This document shows, one piece after another, positions 22-49,211 of a stretch of 64,000 bases of DNA; within the stretch, counting starts at the first letter, position 1, and each line of letters begins with the position of its first letter. Under the pieces are notes generated by a model. The model had not been told where the DNA came from. It saw only the letters and a list, made by a program, of their open reading frames with translations, and did no database searches. This stretch comes from a bacterium (lineage in GTDB: Bacteria > UBA8248), in the NCBI GenBank assembly GCA_965219955.1, contig OZ244799.1, positions 3,520,001 through 3,584,000 of the forward strand, in the 5' to 3' direction. The position numbers and the translations under genes were made by a program.

Positions 22-3632
<3,611 letters not shown>

Positions 3633-3660
3633 GGGTTATCCTCAGGCACTGACTCTAATA

Positions 3661-3860
3661 GAACCTTATATAACATCTAAAGAGCAGTAGCAGTAGGGGC
3701 GGGAAAATTGTGAACAACCGCAGAAGGCGCTGAAAAAGAAGTTCTTGCATGGCCGGAGGGGTGTGGAATTGTTTGTGGGTAAAGGTGAAGGACCGGGTGT
3801 TTTTTCGTCGAGCGCGCCCAGTACAGGGGTTTCAACATGGTTATTCACAACTCTTTCCAC
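3661..3860. promoter_or_regulatory. oriC downstream part: AT-rich segment, DnaA-trios, GC spacer and DnaA boxes
   Basis: GAG-CAG-TAG-CAG-TAG trios 3682-3696, GGGCGGG 3697-3703, DnaA box TGTGAACAA 3709-3717, further boxes TGTGGGTAA ~3775 and TTATTCACA 3841-3849; immediately downstream of dnaA. Confidence 0.8.
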
Positions 3861-3867
3861 GGGTGTT

Positions 3868-5262
3868 TCAGGAAAGGTCTATTTTTTGTTCGAGTGTCTG
3901 GATGGTGCCGGATAGTGTTTGATCCGTCTTGAGAAGGCCCTCGATCTTTTGGGTGGAGTGGATAACCGTGGAGTGGTCTTTTCCGCCGAATCGCCGGCCG
4001 ATATCGGTTGTCGAGGCGCTGGTGAGTTTTCTTGCGAGGTACATGGCGATCTGGCGGGGGACGGCGAATGAGCGCGAGCGGTTTTTCGATTTCAGGTCGC
4101 TGACCCGTACCTGGAAGTGCTCGGCGACGATTTTCTGGATGTTGTCGACAGAAGAGTTGCGGGCGGGGTCGCGGATGATGCTGCGCAGAACCTCTTGCGC
4201 AACCGGCAGGTCGATCTCGATGCTGTGTAAAGAGGCGTGTATGCTGAGTCTTATAAGGCACCCTTCGAGCTCCCGGACGTTGGAGCGAACCTTCTCGGCA
4301 ACGTAGTGGGCGACCTCCCTGTCGAGAAAGTGGCCTTGCTCGGCGGCCTTTTTTTGCAGGATGGCCACCTTGGTCTCGAAATCCGGCGCGCCGATGTCCG
4401 CTATCATTCCTGACGAGAAGCGAGACCTGAGCCGGTCTTCCAGCCCCGGCGTGTCCTTTGGCATTTTGTCAGACGTGATGACGATCTGTTTTTCGTCCCG
4501 TTGCAGGGCCTCGAAAGTGAAGAAGAATTCCTCCCGGGTGCGATCCTTTCCGGCGAGGAACTGGATGTCGTCTATCATCAGGATGTCGACTTTCCTGTAT
4601 TTGTTTCTGATGGCGGCCATCTGATCCTGTCTGATCGCGGCGATGACTTCGTTTGTGAAGCTCTCCGAAGAAGTGTAAAAGACGCGCGCCCTCGGGTACT
4701 GATCGAGAATGCGGTGGCCGATGGCATGCATCAGGTGGGTCTTCCCGAGCCCCACGCCGCCGTAGATGAAAAGCGGAGCGTGGGTGACCCCCACGCCGTC
4801 CGCCAGGCGAAGGCTGCAGGCGTGGGCGAATTGATTCGAGTGGCCTACCACGAAGTTCTCGAAGCGGTACTTGGGATTGAGGAAGGCCGGCCTCTCCGGA
4901 TGGGGCTGGGCCTTCTCCTGAAGCGGCGGCAACCTCTCCGGGGAAACCGTTTCGGCAGACGAAAAAGAGGCGTTCGCCCCGTTTTCTGATGACAAATCGC
5001 TCGCCGACAGGCTGAGCATGACATTCGGCCCGCCCTCTTGTTTGAGAATTTCGGTGATGATTCCCCAGTAACGCGAGCGCAAAGTGTTCGCCGTGAACGG
5101 GTCGGGCGCCTGGATAGCGAGAGAGGACTCGCTTGAGCCGAGCTCTTCGATGCCCGCGAACCAGCGGGTAAACGTCTGGGGGGAGACTTCCTGCTTGATT
5201 TTTTCCGCGCATCGCTGCCAGAGGGTTGTCATTCGGGGATCCGATTCCGCATTATTCGCCAC
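3868..5262 (-). CDS. dnaA: Chromosomal replication initiator DnaA
   Basis: LNPKYRFENFVVG, GGVGLGKTHLMHAIG, DDIQFL, RLRSRF, NVRELEG, domain IV FGGKDHSTVIHS; GTG start. Confidence 0.98.
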   Translation of the reverse strand: MANNAESDPRMTTLWQRCAEKIKQEVSPQTFTRWFAGIEELGSSESSLAIQAPDPFTANTLRSRYWGIITEILKQEGGPNVMLSLSASDLSSENGANASFSSAETVSPERLPPLQEKAQPHPERPAFLNPKYRFENFVVGHSNQFAHACSLRLADGVGVTHAPLFIYGGVGLGKTHLMHAIGHRILDQYPRARVFYTSSESFTNEVIAAIRQDQMAAIRNKYRKVDILMIDDIQFLAGKDRTREEFFFTFEALQRDEKQIVITSDKMPKDTPGLEDRLRSRFSSGMIADIGAPDFETKVAILQKKAAEQGHFLDREVAHYVAEKVRSNVRELEGCLIRLSIHASLHSIEIDLPVAQEVLRSIIRDPARNSSVDNIQKIVAEHFQVRVSDLKSKNRSRSFAVPRQIAMYLARKLTSASTTDIGRRFGGKDHSTVIHSTQKIEGLLKTDQTLSGTIQTLEQKIDLS

Positions 5263-8086: not shown

Positions 8087-9178
8087 ATGAATTTCAGCGG
8101 CGACGGCTGGGGCGACGACGGGGTGGAAGGCCCGGGCTTTCATTACTTCCCCCCCGGCGAGAATCCCGACCTGACGCCTTTCGCGGAGATGTCGGGCCGC
8201 GCGCTCAGGCGCGTCATCGAGCGGATGGACCTGGAAATTCTCGCCCTGGCGCTTCACGATGCCGACGCGCGGGTGGTCGAGCGGGTGCTCAGAAACGTCT
8301 CTTCCAGGAACGCCGCCCACATGCGCGAGGAAATCGAGCGCTCGGGCGCAGAGCAGAGCGAGCGGAGCATCGAGGCGCGGCAGATGCTGATGCAGACCGC
8401 CTACGCCATGAAAAACCACGGCGACATCACCTTCGACGGCCCCGCCGACGACGCCATTCCCCCGCTGGATCGGGCGCTCGAAGAAGGGCTCGCCGCGTTT
8501 CACTCCTCGGACGCCAGGGCCGAACACGCCGTTTCGCTCATCGTCGTTCTGGCCTCTCGGGCGGAGGGGCACGGGCTGCTCTCCCTGGAGCCGGCTCTCG
8601 AGAGGAGCCCGGACGGGATTTTCTCCACCGGCCTCCGGATGCTGGTGGATCAGGCGCCCTGGAACGAGGTCGAAACGATTCTCGCCCGGCAAATCGAGTC
8701 CTCCCTCGGCGCGATGGTCAGGAACAATGAGATAGCCATCGAGGGCGCGCTGGCGATCCTCGAGGGCGTGAGCGAGGATCGCGCGCGAGCGAGGCTCGTC
8801 GCCTTCCTGCCCGAGGGCCAGGCGGATTACGAGCGCCTGCCCGGCGTCCGGTTCTCTCCCTCGACACAGTCGGCGGTCGACATCATCAGCCTGTGCGTCG
8901 AACTCGCGGGCCTGGCGTCGCGCGATGAGGGCGGCGCGATTGCGGAGCGCCTCGAGTGGATTCAGGAACCCCTTCTCAAGACGGGGCTCAAGTGGGCGAT
9001 CGAGGGCGCCTCGATACAGGACGTCGAAAGGCTCCTCAGCCGCAAGGGGCAGACGCGCCTCGACAGGGAGCGTAGAAAGCTCGAGTGTCTGGCGGAGGGA
9101 TTGATGCTCATCAGGGAGGGGCATCCGGTGGACTTCATCCGCGAGGCGCTCGGCGGCTATCTCGAGGACGAGGCTTGA
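8087..9178 (+). CDS. Soluble fusion protein: FliG C-terminal domain plus two MotA-like cytoplasmic domains
   Basis: aa ~30-116 resemble FliG_C (LRRVIERMDLEILALALHDADARVVERVLRNVSSRNAAHMREEIE); aa ~145-242 and ~262-360 resemble the MotA cytoplasmic loop joined to the MotA C-terminal tail (GLLSLE..GLRMLVD..IAIEGALAILEG..LVAFLP); no hydrophobic helix. Confidence 0.75.
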   Translation: MNFSGDGWGDDGVEGPGFHYFPPGENPDLTPFAEMSGRALRRVIERMDLEILALALHDADARVVERVLRNVSSRNAAHMREEIERSGAEQSERSIEARQMLMQTAYAMKNHGDITFDGPADDAIPPLDRALEEGLAAFHSSDARAEHAVSLIVVLASRAEGHGLLSLEPALERSPDGIFSTGLRMLVDQAPWNEVETILARQIESSLGAMVRNNEIAIEGALAILEGVSEDRARARLVAFLPEGQADYERLPGVRFSPSTQSAVDIISLCVELAGLASRDEGGAIAERLEWIQEPLLKTGLKWAIEGASIQDVERLLSRKGQTRLDRERRKLECLAEGLMLIREGHPVDFIREALGGYLEDEA

Positions 9179-9803: not shown

Positions 9804-9958
9804 CCGCCCTTCATCGACGGCCCACGCGCTGGAGAGCGGAGCCTTGTGGCTGGTTCCGGCGCCATTTACGGTTTCCCTGCTCGCCTGTGAGGGTTTCTGG
9901 AGGATTCGCGCGTCCGGGCGGGAGCCATAGTCGGAGGCGGGTTTCGGACGGGAGGGAG

Positions 9959-10732
9959 ATGGCGGAAGAGATGGAAGGAAAAACCTCGATTCAAGGGCAT
10001 GTGGCGCTCGTGACGGCGGGCGCGGTGGGCATCGGCGAGGGAATCGCCGAGCGCCTGGCGTTTGAAGGCGCGCGCGTCGTGCTGCTCGATCTCGACGAGG
10101 CGCAGGGCGAGGCGACCGCGCGGCGGGTATGCGATGGGGGCGGCGAGGCCCGCTTCATCAATACCGACGTCACCTCGGCGAGCGAGATTAAAGCGGCCGT
10201 CGCCGAGGCGCTGAGCGAATGGGCGCGCATCGACATTCTGGTGAACTGCGCGGGCGGCTTCGTGGAGAATCCGCCCATCGAAGATCTGGATGAGGCGCAG
10301 TGGCGCCGGGTCGTGGACTTGAACTTGAAGAGCGCCCATTTGTGCGCGCGCGAAGTAATGCCCGTGATGAAGAAAAGGGGCTATGGCCGCATCGTGAACA
10401 TCTCCTCCCAGTCGGGCCGCGACTCCGTTATCGAGACCGGCCTCGCCTACAGCGCGGCCAAGGCGGGCCTGTTCGGCTTCTGCAGGCGGCTGGCGGTAGA
10501 GGTGGCGCCCCACGGAATCACGGTGAACACGGTGGCTCCGGGCGTCGTGGTTACCCCGAGGACGGCCGTGGTCCACAAGGACAGAATGCCCGAGATCATC
10601 GCCAAAATACCGGTGGGCCGCGTGGCGGACGCCGCGGACATCGCGGATGTCGTGTGGTATCTCGCCAGGCCCGAGGCGCGCTACGTCACGGGCGTGACGC
10701 TCGACGTCAACGGCGGCAGGTACGTCCACTAG
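9959..10732 (+). CDS. SDR family oxidoreductase (FabG-like)
   Basis: TAGAVGIG, NCAG, YSAAK, VTGVTLDVNGG; ATG 9959 after GGAGGGAG. Confidence 0.92.
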   Translation: MAEEMEGKTSIQGHVALVTAGAVGIGEGIAERLAFEGARVVLLDLDEAQGEATARRVCDGGGEARFINTDVTSASEIKAAVAEALSEWARIDILVNCAGGFVENPPIEDLDEAQWRRVVDLNLKSAHLCAREVMPVMKKRGYGRIVNISSQSGRDSVIETGLAYSAAKAGLFGFCRRLAVEVAPHGITVNTVAPGVVVTPRTAVVHKDRMPEIIAKIPVGRVADAADIADVVWYLARPEARYVTGVTLDVNGGRYVH

Positions 10733-10745
10733 AAGGGGCTTACGC

Positions 10746-11504
10746 GTGCACGAGCGATCATCGATAAGGGATCACGTCGCCATCGTCACCGGCGCGACCG
10801 ACGGCATCGGCCTGGCGACGGCGATACGTTTCGCGGATGAGGGCGCGAAGGTGGCCATCATGGGGCGCGACCCCGAGCGGGGCTCGGCGGCCCTGGCCCA
10901 GGTGAGCCTGCACGGCGACGCCATTTTCGTCCAGGGCGACGCCGCCCGGAAAGAAGACGTCGACCTCCTTTTCGCCCGGGCGCTCGGCACCTGGGGCCGC
11001 CTGGACATACTGGTGAACTGCGCGGGCGGGTTCGTGGAAGTCTCGGATATCGAAGGACTCGACGAGGCGGAGTGGGAGAAAATCGTGGACTGGAACCTCA
11101 CGAGCTGCTTCCTCGCCACGCGGGCGGCGGCGGCTCCGATGAAAGAGCTCGGCTATGGCCGCATCGTGAACGTCTCCTCCATCTCCGCGCGCGACGCCCT
11201 GGCGAACGTCTCGCTGGTCTACAGCGCCGCCAAATCCGCGATGCAGGGCTTCACGAGGAGGCTCGCGGTGGAACTCGCCCCCCACGGCGTCACGGTGAAC
11301 GCCGTGGCCCCGGGCGTGACGCTCACCAAGCGCTTTCGTCTCATCCACCAGGAGCGCGTGCCGGAGATTGTGGCGAACCTGCCCGTGGGATTCGGCGGGG
11401 AGCCCGAGGATATCGCCGACGCGATATGGTATTTCTCCACTCCGGGGTCGGGCTACGTCACGGGCGCGACCATCGACGTGAACGGCGGTCAATACGTGAA
11501 CTAG
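10746..11504 (+). CDS. SDR family oxidoreductase, paralog of the upstream gene
   Basis: TGATDGIG, NCAGGFVE, YSAAK, VTGATIDVNGG. Confidence 0.92.
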   Translation: MHERSSIRDHVAIVTGATDGIGLATAIRFADEGAKVAIMGRDPERGSAALAQVSLHGDAIFVQGDAARKEDVDLLFARALGTWGRLDILVNCAGGFVEVSDIEGLDEAEWEKIVDWNLTSCFLATRAAAAPMKELGYGRIVNVSSISARDALANVSLVYSAAKSAMQGFTRRLAVELAPHGVTVNAVAPGVTLTKRFRLIHQERVPEIVANLPVGFGGEPEDIADAIWYFSTPGSGYVTGATIDVNGGQYVN

Positions 11505-11623
11505 CGGGCTTTGAGAAATTTCAGCCGGCGCGCCGCGAAGCCGCCGAAAGCGCGTGGATTCATGGTATCATCTCCGGCAGCGAAAAATTTTCAAGCCGTC
11601 TAGACACCAGAGGAGCCAAGCAA

Positions 11624-12022
11624 ATGCGACGCCCCATGCTCGTGATCGCCCTGTTGTTGCTCGCCGCCGCCCTGGTCCTCCCGCAGGCCGCGCTCGCCGT
11701 GGAAGGATGGAAGCCTTATGACGCCAAGGCGTTCGCCCAGGCCCAAAAGGACGGAAAGACGATTTTCGTGGTCGTCCACACCGAGTGGTGAGGGACGTGC
11801 AGGCAGCAGGTGCCGCTGCTTCAGTCCCTGGTTAAAGAGAAGAAGTTCGCAAGCGCCGCCGCGTTCGCGGTGGACTACGACGCACAGCGCGATTTCCTGA
11901 AGACGCACGGCGTTCGCTGGCAGTCGACGATCGTCGTCTTCAAGGGCGCGCAGGAGAAGGGCCGCTCGACGGGCGACGTGGACATAGCGAGCATCCGAAG
12001 CCTCATGGAGCGCGCGCTGTAG
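11624..12022 (+). CDS. Exported thioredoxin-family selenoprotein (UGA read as Sec)
   Basis: Signal peptide MRRPMLVIALLLLAAALVLPQAALA; HTEW-TGA(11789-11791)-GTC active site; the same frame continues through QSTIVVFKG..EKGR to TAG 12022; AGGAG RBS. Confidence 0.85.
11792..11828 (+). promoter_or_regulatory. Bacterial SECIS-like hairpin
   Basis: GGGAC..GTCCC basal stem, TGcAGGCAGC/GCTGCTTCA upper stem, G-containing apical loop, starting at the base after UGA. Confidence 0.7.
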
Positions 12023-17603: not shown

Positions 17604-17736
17604 AGGGGACGCCGCCCTCGGCTTGAAAAGCACCCCCCTTGAAAGGGAAACTTCATAAAGGCAACCCCCCCTGCCCCCTTGTCAGGGGGGCAAGAAAAAC
17701 CCCTCTCTTTGCTTGGGATTGACCTTCGCCTTTGTT

Positions 17737-17907
17737 CGTCATTCCGGCGAAAGCCGGAAGCCATTTTCGCCTTTGCCTATTCGCTTCCTCGTTCGGACGT
17801 CTTTACTCGGAGGCGAGGAGGATCGGAATCGAACACAAAAACGAAAGGAGAATCCTCTGGATTCCGCTTTCCCTCTCTCCCTGGTCGGAAATGATACCGG
17901 AATGACG
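17737..17907. repeat. Palindromic repeat family A (CGTCATTCCGGC...GGAATGACG)
   Basis: Terminal inverted arms; internal core is the reverse complement of that in the copies at 30104 and 37805. Confidence 0.85.
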
Positions 17908-17921
17908 AGCAAAGCCGCACC

Positions 17922-18091
17922 GCCTCGTCCTGAGTAGCGGCCCCTCGACTTCGCTCGGGACAGGCTCCGCCGTTCCCCGACACCCTCATCCTGAGTAGGC
18001 GCATAAGCGCCGTATCGAAGGATGCCCTCTTGCCACGGCGCAAACCCCTCGCCCTTCGATACGCCGCCTCCGGCGGCTACTCAGGGTGAGG
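17922..18091. repeat. Palindromic repeat family B (CTCATCCTGAGTAG...CTACTCAGG.TGAG)
   Basis: Closely similar copies at 23678-23843 and 28790-28900. Confidence 0.85.
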
Positions 18092-18274
18092 AAAGGGGGT
18101 TGGCGGTTTCCAGTGGACGCATACGGGACTTTTTCGACAACCCCGTACTTGTGACCCACCCCCATGCGCCAATGCCCGCCTGGCCTTGCAATAAAGCCGC
18201 AAATCCGCTTCATTACGGGCGGACGCTGCGCGGGATCGGGCGCGCATCCTCGAGAGACGGAGACGATAAGGCGG

Positions 18275-21724: not shown

Positions 21725-23459
21725 CCCGGATATTTCACCGACAAATGGCATGGGGCCTCTGAATGTCGGATAATGTGAGTTGTCTCAATAACTTACACCC
21801 GTCCGACAGAGAGGCCCCATGGATACGCATTGTACACCGGAACAACTTCACTTTCACCCCCACGGAAGACGCGAGGTCATCGCCCGATTCGACGGCGGAC
21901 GGATCACGTCGGACGCCGGCGGGGTGCTGCTTCGCGAGACGGATCTCCGCCTGGGTCTGATGGCTCGTCTGGCGCGGTGTTTTCGTGATTGCCGCAAGCC
22001 CGGCAGCGTGGAGCACCCGGTGCGCTCGCTGGCGGCGCAGCGGGTGTACGCGCTGGCGCTGGGCTACGAGGACCTGAACGACCACGAGGATTTGCGCCGC
22101 GACAGGTTGCTGGCGCTGCTGGTGGGCAAGCGGGACCTGACGGGAGCCGGGCGGGTTCGCCTTCGGGACCGCGGCTCTCCGCTGGCCGCATCGAGTACGC
22201 TGAACCGCCTGGAGTTGGGCGGCGCCGAGGCGGCGACGGATCGCTACAAGCGCATCGCTGCGGACTTCGAGGCGATGGACCGCCTGCTGGTGGACGTGTT
22301 CATGGAGTCTTACGCCGAACCGCCCGAAGAGATATGGCTGGACCTCGACGCCACGGACGACCCCCTGCACGGTCGCCAGGAGGGGCGCTTCTTCCACGGC
22401 TATTACGGCCGCTACTGTTATCTGCCGCTCTACGTCTTCTGCGGCGCGCATCTGCTGTGCGCGCGGCTGCGCCGCTCGAACGTCGACGCCTCGGCCGGCA
22501 GCGAGGAGGAGTTGGCGCGGATCGTGGCGCAGGTCCGCAGGCGCTGGCCGCGTACGCGGGTCGTGGTTCGCGGCGACTCGGGTTTTTGCCGCGAGCCGTT
22601 GATGCGCTGGTGCGAGGAGAACGGCGTCGGCTACGTGTTCGGCATGGCGCGCAACGCGCGGCTGGTGCGGGCGATTGGCCGGGACCTCTACCGGGCCGAG
22701 GTCGTCTGTCGCCGCACGGGTGAGCCGGCGCGCCGGTATCGCGACTTCCGCTATCGAACGCGCAAGAGCTGGTCCAGAACCCGCCGGGTGGTGGGCAAGG
22801 CGCAATACCTGCCCAGGGGGGCGAACCCGCGGTTCGTGGTCACCAATCTCCGCCCCCGGCGGGCCGGCGCCAGACGCCTCTACGAAGAACTCTACTGCGC
22901 CCGGGGAGAGATGGAGAACCGCATCAAGGAACAGCAACTCGGCCTGTTCGCCGACCGCACCAGCAGCGCCACCATGAGGGCCAATCAGTTGCGGCTCTAC
23001 TTCGCCTCCTTCGCCTACGTCCTGATGCACGGACTCCGGCGCCTGGGGCTGGCGGGCACGACATGCGCCAGGGCCCAGTGCGCAACGATCCGGCTGAAAC
23101 TGCTCAAGATCGGCGCCCGCGTGAGGGTCAGCGTGCGCAAGGTCCGGCTGTCTATCTCCGAGGCCTGGCCCCATGCGGCGCTCTTCGAAAAGGTAGTGAA
23201 CAACCTGCGTACGCACCCGCCCTGGCCGACGGCGGGGGAGAGTGACTGAGCGTAGAATCGGAGCGACATAGGTTGCCGCAGCGGGAAACCTGCGCCTGCG
23301 CGTCGGCCGGCACTCCCCGAAAGCCTTCGAAATCGACGAAAAAGCGCCGCTCGGGCGCCGTGCGTCATCGTATCGCGCCGACGAAGAAGGCCGCCTCCCG
23401 AATCAAGCCGTCCACGACTTCAAATCAGGCCGTTCCAAAGCCTCGGTGAAATATCCGGG
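21725..23459 (+). mobile_element. Complete IS1380-family insertion sequence
   Basis: Perfect 17-bp TIR CCCGGATATTTCACCGA (21725-21741 / 23443-23459); TTAG direct repeat on both sides (21721-21724, 23460-23463). Confidence 0.95.
21819..23249 (+). CDS. IS1380-family DDE transposase
   Basis: [55 protein letters not shown]. Confidence 0.95.
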   Translation: MDTHCTPEQLHFHPHGRREVIARFDGGRITSDAGGVLLRETDLRLGLMARLARCFRDCRKPGSVEHPVRSLAAQRVYALALGYEDLNDHEDLRRDRLLALLVGKRDLTGAGRVRLRDRGSPLAASSTLNRLELGGAEAATDRYKRIAADFEAMDRLLVDVFMESYAEPPEEIWLDLDATDDPLHGRQEGRFFHGYYGRYCYLPLYVFCGAHLLCARLRRSNVDASAGSEEELARIVAQVRRRWPRTRVVVRGDSGFCREPLMRWCEENGVGYVFGMARNARLVRAIGRDLYRAEVVCRRTGEPARRYRDFRYRTRKSWSRTRRVVGKAQYLPRGANPRFVVTNLRPRRAGARRLYEELYCARGEMENRIKEQQLGLFADRTSSATMRANQLRLYFASFAYVLMHGLRRLGLAGTTCARAQCATIRLKLLKIGARVRVSVRKVRLSISEAWPHAALFEKVVNNLRTHPPWPTAGESD

Positions 23460-23578: not shown

Positions 23579-23677
23579 CTTTTTGGGTTTTATGGCGAAC
23601 CGGAATTGCGTTTCAATGACGTGGGCCTGTTGAAAACCCCTCGCCAGGTTTTCTCTAAAATCCCGCCCTCCCGTCTC

Positions 23678-23843
23678 CCTCATCCTGAGCAGCGGCCCCT
23701 CGACTTCGCTCGGGACAAGTTCCGCCCCACCTTCTTCATCCTGAGTAGCCGCCGAAGGCGGCGTATCGAAGGATGCCTTCTCGCTCGCGGCGAGGCGCCT
23801 CCCATCCTTCGATACGGCGCTTTCGCGCCTACTCAGGATGAGG
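23678..23843. repeat. Palindromic repeat family B, inside degenerate TGTTGAAAA...TTTTCAACA brackets (23623-23939)
   Basis: Near-identical to 28790-28900 and 17922-18091. Confidence 0.85.
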
Positions 23844-24049
23844 TTTTGTTGTAGCGTACGCCGCGCGATCCGTCATACGTCCGATCTCGAAGCCGATTTT
23901 TTTAACAGCCCCTTGTCAGGGGAGCTTTTCAACAACCCCTGCAATCTGGTGTATTTCCAAACAAGCCTGCAGGGACAGGTCACGACCTTGGACCGTTCAC
24001 AAGAACGGCCCACTACCAAAGAGCACTCCTCCCATCGCTGATTCCCCGT

Positions 24050-26959: not shown

Positions 26960-27334
26960 ATGTCCCAGTTCGTCATATACGCCCACAGCGGCGAGCCCGA
27001 GCGCATCCACCAGATAGCCACCCTCGCGGCGAGCGCCGCCGCGAACGGGGAAGAGGTGCACGTGATCCTCTTCTTCGGCGCGCTCAAACGGTTCGTGGAC
27101 GACGATTTGGACGCCGCGCTTCCGGCGGGAGAGGGCGTGCGCGGAGCGCATTCGGCGGAAGAACTCATCGAGTCCGCCAGAAGGCTCGGCAAGCTCAGAG
27201 TCTACGCCTGCGCCGCGCAGCCCAAGCTCCTGGGCCTGGCGCCCGAGGAGGTGGCGGACGTCGTGGACGAGATAATCAGCCTCCCTGAGTTCATGCGGAA
27301 AACGAAAGGGGCGGAGACCAAGCTCTTCATCTGA
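26960..27334 (+). CDS. DsrE/DsrF-like peroxiredoxin-family protein
   Basis: LAASAAANGEEVHVILFFGALK, RVYACAA, C-terminal KLFI. Confidence 0.7.
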   Translation: MSQFVIYAHSGEPERIHQIATLAASAAANGEEVHVILFFGALKRFVDDDLDAALPAGEGVRGAHSAEELIESARRLGKLRVYACAAQPKLLGLAPEEVADVVDEIISLPEFMRKTKGAETKLFI

Positions 27335-28500: not shown

Positions 28501-28688
28501 CGTCATTCCGGCAATCATTTCCGACCAAGGCGGGAGGGAATGCGGAATCCATTTTTACGCCCTTTGCCTTTCGTCCGGGTTCCCGCGCATCGGCGGGGAA
28601 TGAAACGCCGTCGCGTCTTCACCCGCATCCGCAAATGGATTCCGGGCAATCCCTCCCTCCTTGGTCGGCATTGATTGCCGGAATGACG
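28501..28688. repeat. Palindromic repeat family A variant
   Basis: CGTCATTCCGGCAATCA...TGATTGCCGGAATGACG long inverted arms. Confidence 0.85.
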
Positions 28689-28732
28689 AACAAAACCACA
28701 CCAAAAGAGGGGTTTGCGCCTACGGTTCAAGG

Positions 28733-28760
28733 GTAGGGGCGGTTCGCGAACCGCCCCTAC
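28733..28760. repeat. GTAG-type REP (perfect palindrome)
   Basis: GTAGGGGCGGTTCGCGAACCGCCCCTAC. Confidence 0.85.
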
Positions 28761-28761
28761 G

Positions 28762-28987
28762 GGGTCTGTTGAAAAAGTCCTCACATCTTCCTCATCCTGA
28801 GTAGCCGCCGAAGGCGGCGTATCGAAGGATGCCTTCTTGCACGACGGGAGACGCCTCCCATCCTTCGATACGGCGCTGGCGCGCCTACTCAGGATGAGGT
28901 TTTGTGGCCGCCTGCGCGGTAGGAAGGAGTATCGCCGAGTAATCCCCAATACCGCCTGCTCCAGAGTCAGGCTTTTTCAACAACCCC
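28762..28987. mobile_element. MITE-like element carrying a family B repeat pair
   Basis: Ends GGGTCTGTTGAAAAA / TTTTTCAACAACCCC; CTACG duplicated at 28757-28761 and 28988-28992. Confidence 0.7.
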
Positions 28988-29912: not shown

Positions 29913-30103
29913 AAGGACTCCATGGAATCGGTGGATGGATGAGAGAAAGGTATCCCCAGGCCTCGGGCGCAGTCAATGGTTCTGGCCGTTGCGCGACTGC
30001 GGACATTGCCTTTGAAGAACTTTGCCGACCGACGAGAGAGAAGAAAGCCATTCCCCCTTGAGGACTGCTGAAAAAGGCACCCTTGGTCGGAATTGACCAC
30101 CGC

Positions 30104-30311
30104 CGTCATTCCGGCGGAAGCCGGAATCCATTTTGACTTTTTATCGGGCGGGGCGGCCACGATTTGTTGTTGGCCGGCGTCCGGATGCGGAATCCGGAGA
30201 ATTCGCCTTTCGTGTTCGATTCCGCTCTTCCCCGTCCGAGAGTAGAGACGTCCGAGCGAGGAGGCGAAAAGGCAAAGGCGAAAATGGATTCCAGCTTTCG
30301 CCGGAACGACG
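30104..30311. repeat. Palindromic repeat family A, inside degenerate TG.TGAAAAA...TTTTTGAACA brackets (30061-30377)
   Basis: ~200 bp collinear with the 37805-38018 copy, including flank. Confidence 0.88.
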
Positions 30312-30507
30312 GCCAAAACCCGAAATCGGGCGGAGGCGCAAGCGTCACTACCTCCTCGGGGGTTTTTGAACAGCCCCGTGAGCGGTGGATGGGGAAAGGG
30401 CATCCCCCCGCCTCGCGGGCGGCCAATGGCTCCCGGCCGTTGCGCGGCGGGCGGGCGGGAGGCATGATAGGGGCGGAACTTCATGAAACCCTCCTCGAAT
30501 TGGAGAC

Positions 30508-31504: not shown

Positions 31505-31963
31505 ATGGCAGCGCTAAAAGAAGGAGCGAAAGCCCCCGCCTTCGCCTTGAGGGATGAGAACGGCAAGGTGCACCGGCTCTCGAAATACAAGGGCCAGAAG
31601 GTCGTGCTGTACTTCTACCCGAAGGACAACACGCCCGGATGCACGGCGGAGGCGCGGGACTTCAACAAGCAACTGCAGAAGATACACAAGAAGAACGCGA
31701 CCGTAATCGGCGTCAGCCCGGACAACGAGGTCAGCCACAAGAAGTTCTCCGAGCAACTGGAGCTCGACTTCACCCTGCTGGCGGACCCCGACGGACTCAT
31801 CTCGTCCAAATACGGGGCGTACGGCGAGAAGACGCTGTTCGGCGAGAAGTTCAACGGCATCTTCCGAACCACCTACATCATCGACGAGACGGGCGTCATT
31901 GAGAAGGTGTTCAAGGACGTCAAGGTGGCCGGCCATACGAAGGACGTGCTGAAAGCCCTTTAG
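31505..31963 (+). CDS. bcp: Bacterioferritin comigratory protein (BCP/PrxQ peroxiredoxin, 1-Cys)
   Basis: YFYPKDNTPGCTAEARDF, GVSPD, RTTYIID. Confidence 0.93.
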   Translation: MAALKEGAKAPAFALRDENGKVHRLSKYKGQKVVLYFYPKDNTPGCTAEARDFNKQLQKIHKKNATVIGVSPDNEVSHKKFSEQLELDFTLLADPDGLISSKYGAYGEKTLFGEKFNGIFRTTYIIDETGVIEKVFKDVKVAGHTKDVLKAL

Positions 31964-37655: not shown

Positions 37656-38079
37656 GGGGTTGTTGAAAAAGTTCTGATGAAAGAGGGATTTATTCTGTAG
37701 GGGTCGTTCACCAGAACGACCCGCGTTCGCTAACGGCCCTTGCCGGAGAACCGGGCGCTTCACGAAGCGCCCCTACGACACCCTTCCGGGGAAACCACAA
37801 CACCCGTCATTCCGGCGAAAGCCGGAATCCATTCTGACTTTTCACCGGGCAGGGCGGCCACGACCTTGTAGTTGCGCGGCGTCCGGATGTGGAACCCAGA
37901 GAATTCGCCTTTCGTTTTGTGTTTGATTCCGGTCCTCCCCGCCCGGGCGTAAAGACGTCCGAACGAGGAGGCGAAAAGGCAAAGGCGAAAATGGATTCCG
38001 GCTTTCGCCGGAATGACGGCAAAAACTCGAAACCGGGCGGAGGCGTCACTTCCTCCTCAAGGGATTTTTCAACAGACCC
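37656..38079. mobile_element. MITE-like element carrying a GTAG-REP doublet (37697-37776) and a family A repeat (37805-38018)
   Basis: Ends GGGGTTGTTGAAAAA / TTTTTCAACAGACCC; GACAA duplicated at 37651-37655 and 38080-38084. Confidence 0.7.
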
Positions 38080-38412
38080 GACAAGGGGGGGTAGGGGGGG
38101 TTGGTTTTCAGGGCGAGAAGGGCATCCCGTCCTCCCTCCCCGGGGTGAATGGAATCCGTGCGGCCGGCAAGGGGCCGCCGAGGCCGCAAAGACGCGCTTC
38201 TACTCCCCGCTCAGGAGAGAGAGGCGAACGTGCTCGACAGGCTGCCGGGGCGCGTTCAGTGCGAAGCGAGGCCGATGGCAGCGACTCCCGGCCGGGTTGG
38301 CTACCCATTTCCCGGAATCCCTGTTAAAAGAGCGGGCGTCTTCACGGGCGGCGCATGGTGGATGCGCAGCCGGAACCAGATGTTCACCGCAAACCACGGG
38401 AGGCGATTCAAA

Positions 38413-38883
38413 ATGGCGATTCGGCCGAAGGAACTACCCGAAACCACGGAGAACTGGGCGGAAGCCGACTTCAAGGGCCACTCGAAGAGCGTCGTGACCC
38501 TCATGCGCGGATACACCCTGGTGATGGACGAGCCCAGGCACCTGGGCGGCTCGGGCGAGGGGCCCTCGCCCATGGACTATCAGGTGACCTCGCTGGCGGG
38601 CTGCACGGCGGTGATGCTCGAGAGGTGCGCCAAGGATGCGAAACTCGAGATCGGCTCCCTCAAGGTGAAATCCACCATCGTCTACAGCCCCAGGGGCATC
38701 GCGGGCCAGGAGGACTATCAATCGCACCCGAGCGAGGCGCACAGCGAGATATGGCTCGAGATCGATGCGACGAAAGAGCAGATAGAGGCGCTCAAGGCGG
38801 AGTATTTCCGCAGATGCCCGGTGTACAACCTGTACAAGGCCGGCGGCTGCGCGGTGCGCGACACCTGGCACGTGATCAGGTAG
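38413..38883 (+). CDS. OsmC/Ohr-family protein
   Basis: MDEPRHLGGSGEGPSPMDY..SLAGC and RRCPVYN two-Cys pattern; ATG 38413 after GGAGG. Confidence 0.88.
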   Translation: MAIRPKELPETTENWAEADFKGHSKSVVTLMRGYTLVMDEPRHLGGSGEGPSPMDYQVTSLAGCTAVMLERCAKDAKLEIGSLKVKSTIVYSPRGIAGQEDYQSHPSEAHSEIWLEIDATKEQIEALKAEYFRRCPVYNLYKAGGCAVRDTWHVIR

Positions 38884-38945: not shown

Positions 38946-39206
38946 GGGGCCATTGAAAAACCCTGTTTCGGGGTCGGCGGCATGGAGGTTCACGCGGCGC
39001 AGGCGCGATGGTTTTGTAGGGACAGGCCTCCGTGCCTGTCCTCACGAAGGACAACCCCGAAAGGCAGGACAGGCACGGAGGCCACGGACAGGCGCAGGAG
39101 CCTGTCCGCTACGGGCGAATGCGGTTTTGATCGTCATTCCGACAATCAATGCCGACCGACGAGAGAGAAAAATCACTCCCCCCTCGAGGGGTTTTTCAAC
39201 AACCCC
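38946..39206. repeat. Degenerate MITE-like bracket with a GTAG-REP doublet (39016-39112) and a family A fragment
   Basis: GGGGCCATTGAAAAA...TTTTTCAACAACCCC; no target duplication. Confidence 0.6.
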
Positions 39207-48053: not shown

Positions 48054-49211
48054 TTAGACACGCATCGGCATTACAACATATGTATAGCCATCCGAATCTT
48101 CGGGAGAGAGTACCCCGGGACTCAGCGAATCCTTTAACTCCATGCTGATCTGCTCTTCGTCCAATATGGAGAGCGCATCAAGACAATACCTGGAATTAAA
48201 CCCGATCGTGATGTCAGTCTGCGCGTTCGATTCTATGACTTCCTCGGCTTCTCCCGCTTCTGAGCCATTCGTCGTCAGTTTCAACTGGCCCGGGGTGAAC
48301 TCAAACTTCACCATGCGCGTTTCGTTCGTAAAAAGAGAAACCCGCCTGAGCGCCTGCGTTAAACTTTCCCGGTTCATCAAAATGGAATGCTCATTATTAT
48401 CTGGAATTACTTGCCTGTATTTCGGAAATTCGCCATCTATCAGGCGGGCCGATAACGCGATATTTTCCATTTGAAAAATGATGTGGTTTGGAGTGAGAGA
48501 GGCGGGCGCTTCTTCCCCTGAAAGAGATAAGCCCTGGCCGCTTGAAACGTGGGTGAGAGAAACGGATACGTCACCCTCGACGCCCTGCAAGAGCTTGACG
48601 AGTTCTCCCAACGCTTTTTTGTGGACAATCACTCCTTCTTCAAGTACCAACCCTTCGCTCGCTCGCTCAATCATCGCCAACCGATGGCCATCCGTAGCGA
48701 CGAGGCGCAGGGTGTCGGCTTCGGTTTCCATGAAAACGCCATTGTACGTATAGCGCGTCTCATCCTGGGATATCGCAAACATCGTCTTTCGAATCATTTC
48801 CGATAAAACCGAAGCAGAAATTGTATGTGTGTCTGACTCCCTCGACTCAGGAAGCGCGGGAAACTCTGCAGGCGGCAACCCCGGAAAACGGAATCTCGAG
48901 CGCTCACAGCGCATTTCAATCCACTGTCCATCTTCTTCCGTGAAACGAACCTCCGACTCAGGAAGTTCCCTGACAATGTCAAACAATTTCCTTGCATTCA
49001 GCGTGACTTTCCCTGCTTTCTCTACTTCAGCCTCGAACATTCCCCGCATGCTGATATCAAGATTCGTACCCAACAAACGGATATTCTTATTGCCTTCGGT
49101 CTCGACAAGCACGTTTTGTAATATTGGCATTGCGCTGCTTCTATTTTCGACGACACCTTGTATCGTCTGCAGGGCCCTGAGTAACGTATCCCTTGAAATG
49201 GCTAACTCCAC
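48054..49211 (-). CDS. dnaN: DNA polymerase III beta sliding clamp
   Basis: MPILQNVL, LVATDGHRLA, RLIDGEFPKY, IGFNSRY, YVVMPMRV; GTG start after AGGAG. Confidence 0.97.
   Translation of the reverse strand: MELAISRDTLLRALQTIQGVVENRSSAMPILQNVLVETEGNKNIRLLGTNLDISMRGMFEAEVEKAGKVTLNARKLFDIVRELPESEVRFTEEDGQWIEMRCERSRFRFPGLPPAEFPALPESRESDTHTISASVLSEMIRKTMFAISQDETRYTYNGVFMETEADTLRLVATDGHRLAMIERASEGLVLEEGVIVHKKALGELVKLLQGVEGDVSVSLTHVSSGQGLSLSGEEAPASLTPNHIIFQMENIALSARLIDGEFPKYRQVIPDNNEHSILMNRESLTQALRRVSLFTNETRMVKFEFTPGQLKLTTNGSEAGEAEEVIESNAQTDITIGFNSRYCLDALSILDEEQISMELKDSLSPGVLSPEDSDGYTYVVMPMRV

Follow-up and report, generated by a model that had tools for sequence, protein, structure and literature searches.

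A thioredoxin-like gene that looks broken in a 64,000-nt stretch of bacterial DNA (the window) is almost certainly intact, its internal stop codon being used for selenocysteine (Sec) in an exported thioredoxin-like redox protein. A continuous 132-codon frame runs from 11624 to 12022 on the forward strand and contains a single internal stop, TGA 11789–11791, which on read-through falls within the motif W55-*56-G-T-C59. ORF calling with Table 11 cuts the frame in two, one piece running to 11791 and a 70-amino-acid piece starting from GTG 11810. A sequence-only reading of the window had proposed that the frame is unbroken across this cut and that the TGA stands for the first Cys of a WCxxC motif. 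Both proposals hold; the column in question is Cys in all 147 full-length, single-domain homologues, which were retained from 178 hits compared (the others dropped out by length or gave no hit). The features of the gene are as follows.

11610–11615, forward strand: Shine-Dalgarno sequence GAGGAG, 8 nt 5′ of the ATG.
11624–12022, forward strand: gene for the putative 132-residue exported thioredoxin-fold selenoprotein (W-U-G-T-C), ending in TAG, assigned from the frame, PF00085 and the AlphaFold model.
11624–11698, forward strand: predicted Sec-pathway (SPase I) signal peptide, residues 1–25, with a probable cut after A-L-A, from inspection of the sequence.
11789–11791, forward strand: TGA, candidate Sec56 at the attacking position of UxxC, from TGA/Cys alternation in homologues.
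11792–11828, forward strand: bacterial SECIS-type stem-loop, with apical loop AGGUGCC at 11808–11814 and invariant G at 11809.
11798–11800, forward strand: resolving Cys59 (TGC), Cys in 18 of 18 TGA forms.
11924–11926, forward strand: Ser101, replacing the cis-proline of the thioredoxin fold, from alignment with TXNDC5 and Trxlp.

A scan of the strand for promoters and terminators returned nothing informative.

The alternation of codons at position 56 is central to the interpretation. In GTDB genomes, 518 relatives were confirmed, and locus counts are given for the best 80 of these. At the attacking column, TGA occurs in 17 of the 80 loci and TGC or TGT in the other 63, which is the Cys/UGA alternation anticipated from the window alone. 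The 17 TGA loci are 59–91% identical to the window, always carry TGA at the catalytic column, and show no further stop along the aligned region; five are labelled Nitrospinota or Nitrospinaceae, one Ca. Tectomicrobia, and 11 plain "bacterium." The 63 Cys loci are alphaproteobacterial nearly throughout. A GAGGAG-type motif occupies the same upstream place in 15 of the 17 TGA loci (it is one codon off in L014 and different in L019). Shorter database relatives (n = 33, 71–98% identical, two labelled Nitrospinae) comprise 15 N-terminal and 18 C-terminal fragments, and all 15 N-terminal fragments stop exactly at the Trp that precedes the TGA.

The same TGA is found in 17 independent genomes, which excludes sequencing error and with it a misread TGC or TGT. 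Sequence 3′ of the TGA is under purifying selection (dN/dS of 0.18–0.74 in 17 of 17 pairwise comparisons with the window as reference), and 5′ of it dN is below dS in all 17 pairs. Cys59 belongs to neither of the "split" ORFs, being located between them, and does not vary among the 18 TGA forms (window included). In the window, TGA otherwise serves as a terminator: it ends 9 of 20 genes and does not occur internally (8356 codons, 62 TGG codons); a recoded genetic code, in which UGA is Trp or Gly, was discarded on these counts. The conserved TGA, the dN/dS values, the invariant Cys59, and the ordinary use of TGA as a stop together led us to reject a pseudogene, a sequencing error, and a recoded code. 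In a tree of 105 columns (quick method, SH-aLRT), the 17 TGA rows cluster with a support of 86, and L019 meets the other TGA rows only via an open fork with the Cys row L043; on this topology, Sec in the TGA forms is likely to have a single origin. L019 (4775) is the most divergent TGA form (59% identity, W-U-S-T-C, loop AGUU), and its neighborhood differs, with rhodanese-ThiF/MoeB and MFS transporter genes.

Insertion of Sec by SelB at a UGA codon followed by a hairpin is an established bacterial mechanism. The sequence-only reading had pointed to a 37-nt stem-loop beginning at the base after the TGA, and this is what we find: the hairpin at 11792–11828 (GGGAC...GTCCC) folds at −19.4 kcal/mol (z = −2.6), and only 3 of 200 dinucleotide shuffles are as stable. 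When these 13 codons are recoded synonymously at window codon usage, 1.7% of 300 variants fold equally well (z = −2.0), and the segment ranks second of 106 segments of equal size along the gene. The signal is weaker when longer segments of 62–101 nt are folded (z = −0.7 to −1.75). The bSECIS model, as described in PMC13188914, specifies a loop of 3–9 nt, an upper stem of 4–16 bp, a G in the first two loop positions, a spacing of 16–37 nt, and a minimum free energy of −7.5 or below. These published constraints were applied to minimum-energy folds with our own script, not with bSECISearch. The window hairpin, with its 7-nt loop, 7-bp upper stem, G at the second loop position, and 16-nt spacing, agrees with the model in all four respects. 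The model is loose, since 307 of 1047 TGA triplets (29%) in window positions 1–41000 pass it; only 2 of the 1047 both pass and fold at −19.4 kcal/mol or below.

The hairpin is retained along with the UGA. The constraints fit 16 of the 18 TGA forms (window included), always with the loop at nt 16, and 16 of the 63 Cys forms among the best 80 of 518, never with the loop at nt 16. Mean fold energy over the 37 nt after the codon is −17.6 kcal/mol for TGA forms versus −8.4 kcal/mol for Cys forms at similar GC content, a contrast that does not represent 18 independent observations because the TGA rows are close kin. A hairpin with its loop at nt 16 can be closed in 18 of 18 TGA forms at −11.6 kcal/mol or below; at −7.5 kcal/mol or below, this is so for 4 of the 63 Cys forms in the same best 80. 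Within the TGA forms, the loop G is invariant and the next base is G or U, matching the bSECIS model. Counted against the hairpin are L010 and L011, in which a competing fold is 4–7 kcal/mol more stable than the SECIS-type fold. Both registers of the hairpin were analyzed for covariation and none was detected, the result being no better than shuffles: 88% of cells are paired, and the 12 distinct sequences show no compensatory pair changes. Nor do the hairpin codons show any reduction in synonymous divergence (0.20 versus 0.21 and 0.22 elsewhere in the gene).

The source lineage very likely possesses the Sec machinery, because UBA8248 and Bin107 are selenoprotein-rich in BSepDB. The closest locus among the best 80 of 518, L004 (91% protein identity and about 85% DNA identity over the region), is classified as p__UBA8248;g__Bin107 (supplement to PMC9531527). 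Three UBA8248 genomes, with 54, 50, and 48 genes, are among the BSepDB top ten by selenoprotein number; entry requires a genome with at least two Sec pathway genes, and the 48-gene genome is named "Nitrospinae bacterium bin107" (PMC13326102). We take the latter to be Bin107 sp002238965. UBA8248 has been proposed as Spongiamicota and reaches its peak abundance in sponge metagenomes (PMC11920076). Within the 64-kb window, none of selA, selB, selC, and selD was found, nor any tRNA, tRNA-Sec included, or Rfam element, and the flanks of the 17 TGA loci contained no tRNA. A Cys-type motif screen of 748 TGA read-through segments in the window gave no convincing further selenoprotein gene. Nor was a convincing one found at the ends of 46 ORFs, including those of the OsmC-like, DsrE-like, and BCP-type peroxiredoxin genes (38149–38883, 26960–27334, and 31505–31963); these three lack an in-frame TGA, and their families have Sec members elsewhere.

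The encoded protein matches PF00085 over residues 35–129 (38.5 bits against a cut-off of 23.5), and its AlphaFold model has a pLDDT of 92–98 per 10-residue block from residue 31 onward, with low values in the signal peptide. At the N terminus are basic residues, a hydrophobic stretch scoring 3.5 (Kyte-Doolittle 9-mer), and A-L-A at 23–25; Cys is absent. A hydrophobic N-terminal extension is present in all 18 TGA forms, as well as in 137 of the 147 single-domain Cys homologues. The resemblance to a Sec signal peptide noted in the sequence-only reading is thereby upheld, and these N-terminal features make export via the Sec pathway highly likely. Two other routes were considered: Tat export is unlikely, the twin Arg being absent in L006, L007, and L009, and a lipoprotein was rejected, as no TGA form (0 of 18) has a Cys in residues 1–55.

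The active site departs from that of classical thioredoxins. Ser101 aligns with the Pro of the TXNDC5 GYPT loop and with the corresponding Ser of Trxlp; this site carries Ser in every one of the 18 TGA forms and in 133 of the 147 Cys homologues, only 1 of which has Pro. Six positions ahead of the attacking residue, 93 of 147 Cys homologues have Asp or Glu but none of the 18 TGA forms does, and this we counted against our interpretation. The classical thioredoxin model TIGR01068 scores 43.7 bits, below its NCBIfam cut-off of 96.8, and unlike TrxA, which is cytoplasmic and has the cis-proline, the protein carries a predicted signal peptide and lacks that proline. The proposal of an exported UxxC thioredoxin is thus retained for the predicted export, the motif, and the fold, but not in the sense of a classical TrxA type. 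The protein is instead a member of an exported thioredoxin subfamily that lacks the cis-proline and is linked to CcdA in its Cys forms; the predicted signal peptide, single thioredoxin domain of about 130 residues, and QST loop by which we informally delimit this Trxlp-like/CcdA-linked subfamily are all present. Exported "thioredoxin family proteins" paired with CcdA in alpha- and betaproteobacteria are 40–50% identical to it, equal in length, and share the signal peptide, the QST loop, and Ser at the cis-proline site; they differ in having Cys for Sec, mostly as CP[VT]C against UGTC here, and an adjacent ccdA. The NCBIfam models TsoB (NF045694), WAxxUGC_long (NF041054), and Trx7/PDZ (NF041199) show weak local similarity around the redox motif (15–22 bits against cut-offs of 300–805) and have different architectures, and the protein belongs to none of them.

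Among single-domain solved structures, Trxlp of Edwardsiella piscicida (PDB 5ZF2, 5ZPV) is the best sequence match. The AlphaFold model superposes on 5zf2 with an rmsd of 0.8 Å over 99 columns at 30% identity; the model was built on the subfamily alignment, so this closeness indicates subfamily and not function. Trxlp is likewise exported, with WCxxC and Ser at the cis-proline site, but it is a Cys enzyme from a fish pathogen, with a reported action on host ASK1. Its secretion is described as independent of T3SS, T6SS, and vesicles, and ASK1 is bound through the WCXXC motif (PMC6636751). Trxlp, the closest relative to have been studied, reduces insulin much more poorly than classical thioredoxins do (PMC6636751), which we counted against our interpretation. 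The crystal contains the reduced dithiol form, and the available portion of the report mentions no bound metal (PMC6636751).

A CcdA-type gene (PF02683) lies within 1.5 kb 3′ of the thioredoxin gene and on the same strand in 60 of the 63 Cys loci among the best 80 of 518. None is present in the window or within 10 kb of any TGA locus (0 of 18 TGA cases), so the electron donor of the TGA forms is an extrapolation. CcdA takes up electrons from cytoplasmic thioredoxin and delivers them to thioredoxin-like proteins of the periplasm (PMC3322552). RefSeq plasmid annotations contain the same thioredoxin and CcdA pair; the plasmid relatives comprise 94 records, all below 60% identity. The fusion search, with two matches among 8000 candidates scored, found one Trx-CcdA fusion, P0213 (368 residues, PF00085 and PF02683), which could be real or a read-through artefact. 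ECF sigma/NrsF, DUF692, and CMD genes recur near Cys homologues. In B. japonicum, Bll1026 and Bll1027 are a periplasmic thioredoxin and a DsbD-beta protein that are induced by H2O2 and have been speculated to feed periplasmic Msr (PMC3420878). We use this pair as an analogue only, not as an established homologue of the present subfamily.

The TGA gene has a different setting. In the window and in 16 of the 17 TGA loci (best 80 of 518), it sits in a conserved region, with dnaA-yidC and short-chain dehydrogenase genes on one side and capA-like, galT-like, and ABC transporter genes on the other, which offers no functional clue. Tandem short-chain dehydrogenase paralogues (9887–11504, forward strand, 70–77% DNA identity in stretches) lie directly 5′ of the thioredoxin gene, and the pair is kept in most TGA loci. 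Directly 3′ of yidC, the window encodes a 363-residue protein with an N-terminal FliG C-terminal domain (8087–9178, forward strand), an unusual place for a FliG-like domain; clustering indicates that the gene is conserved there in 16 loci and the window. At 22–5262, the gene order runs directly from dnaA to recF and gyrB, without an intervening dnaN, and the 16 syntenic loci share this order; dnaN is located at 48054–49211, in a low-GC part of the window. In this part (about 40650–64000), GC is about 0.51 against about 0.63 before it, and GC3 about 0.55 against about 0.85. The change involves no N gap, and the repeats of the first part also end there; two contigs or genomes are possibly joined in the window. 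Those repeats form at least two families of 100–250 nt intergenic elements, MITE- or REP-like, with terminal inverted arms (CGTCATTCCGGC...GCCGGAATGACG), at 17731–18099, 23669–23861, 28501–28917, 30078–30338, 37779–38090, and 39012–39167. A DDE transposase (PF13701), which we take to be IS1380-like, is inserted at 21819–23249 (forward strand) between mnmG and parA, and no rsmG was noticed there.

The explanation we consider probable is that an intact Sec gene encodes an exported periplasmic dithiol reductant, fed by CcdA/DsbD, with a Sec nucleophile and a narrow substrate range. SelB carrying Sec-tRNA(Sec) would bind the hairpin that follows UGA 11789 and Sec would be inserted at residue 56, a step of which we are very confident. 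The product would be exported through the Sec pathway, its 25-residue signal peptide cut, leaving in the periplasm a monomer of about 107 residues with the thioredoxin fold. The Sec56 selenolate would then attack a substrate disulfide or an oxidized cysteine, and Cys59 would resolve the resulting mixed bond. Re-reduction, with electrons from cytoplasmic thioredoxin, would fall to a membrane carrier of the CcdA/DsbD type, whose gene would lie elsewhere in the genomes of this lineage. Judged by analogy with the Cys homologues, this reductive role seems reasonably likely. Since the cis-proline is missing, the protein is probably a narrow-partner reductant serving repair under oxidative or metal stress in the envelope (e.g., feeding a periplasmic Msr or peroxiredoxin) and not a general disulfide reductase.

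Other functions were weighed. It is conceivable, if unlikely, that the gene represents a lineage-specific Sec upgrade of the Trxlp subfamily that lacks the cis-proline, uncoupled from ccdA and exported for host redox signaling or for metal binding or sensing through an unshielded U-x-x-C. We consider it improbable that the main job of the selenoprotein is to bind or sense periplasmic metals (Cu, Hg, etc.) or Fe-S through U-x-x-C, although several features suit such a role. The cis-proline is said to keep metals off CxxC thiols, and it is Ser that occupies this site throughout the TGA forms and in most homologues. His52, beside the motif, is invariant (18 of 18), and the insulin reductase activity of Trxlp is weak. 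Genes for DUF692, DUF2282, and DUF2063, which are linked to copper stress, lie near some Cys homologues. The ccdA linkage of the Cys loci nevertheless points to a redox cycle, and Trxlp crystallized as the reduced dithiol, with no mention of bound metal in the portion of the report available.

A secreted, host-directed thioredoxin mimic, with which a sponge-associated bacterium would damp host redox signaling as Trxlp does, is still harder to credit. Trxlp is the closest relative by sequence (5zpv, 5zf2) and by fold (5zf2), is secreted, and binds ASK1, and UBA8248 is most abundant in sponges. Identity to Trxlp is only 30%, however, compared with the 40–50% shared with alphaproteobacterial homologues, and the structural match reflects subfamily and not function. 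Moreover, the subfamily is widespread beside ccdA in non-pathogenic alphaproteobacteria, and 16 of 17 TGA loci place the gene in a conserved housekeeping region beside dnaA/yidC.

A few bacteria are known to decode UGA as Cys with dedicated tRNAs. An ordinary CxxC protein, made by reading the UGA as Cys or another residue through a SECIS-dependent or leaky route, would be compatible with Sec machinery not having been seen directly; it is very improbable in a lineage listed among the most selenoprotein-rich bacteria, and the TGA stops and TGG for Trp in the window exclude a recoded code. We attach next to no credence to a pseudogene, a split gene (55- and 70-residue products), or a sequencing error: databases do store the halves separately and GTG 11810 could restart translation, but 17 genomes share the TGA with no further stops and a downstream dN/dS below 1, Cys59 is kept although it falls between the pieces, and the restart site lies inside the hairpin loop and is GTT or GCG in 4 of 18 forms.

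We therefore return to the Sec-containing periplasmic reductant and its place among known selenoproteins. Its novelty is modest, because UxxC thioredoxins are a known selenoprotein family. Trx (PF00085, UxxC) appears as an experimentally verified family in Table 1 of PMC13188914, alongside several UxxC proteins that resemble TlpA, Dsb, and redoxins, and the Sargasso Sea survey had earlier tallied Trx among its selenoproteins (PMC1088965). By the rule given in PMC13188914 (same domain, same motif), the gene joins this family. It shares with other bacterial Trx selenoproteins the domain, W-U-x-x-C, one Sec, and a UGA with an adjacent bSECIS; it differs in its predicted signal peptide and in having neither the cis-proline nor an Asp six positions ahead of the motif. 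The tblastn method of BSepDB could well catch this gene already. Our literature search, mostly of papers outside subscription journals, found no description of this gene or of a Sec form of the Trxlp/CcdA-linked subfamily.

Our understanding of Sec insertion is unchanged, and UxxC proteins of the thioredoxin fold are the commonest kind of selenoprotein in selenoprotein-rich bacteria. The finding corrects an annotation error repeated across the lineage, in which the gene is stored as two "hypothetical" fragments. An exported thioredoxin subfamily that is otherwise Cys-only here also gains a Sec member, and the two naturally occurring forms can be compared to ask what advantage selenium confers in the periplasm and in a fold that lacks the cis-proline.
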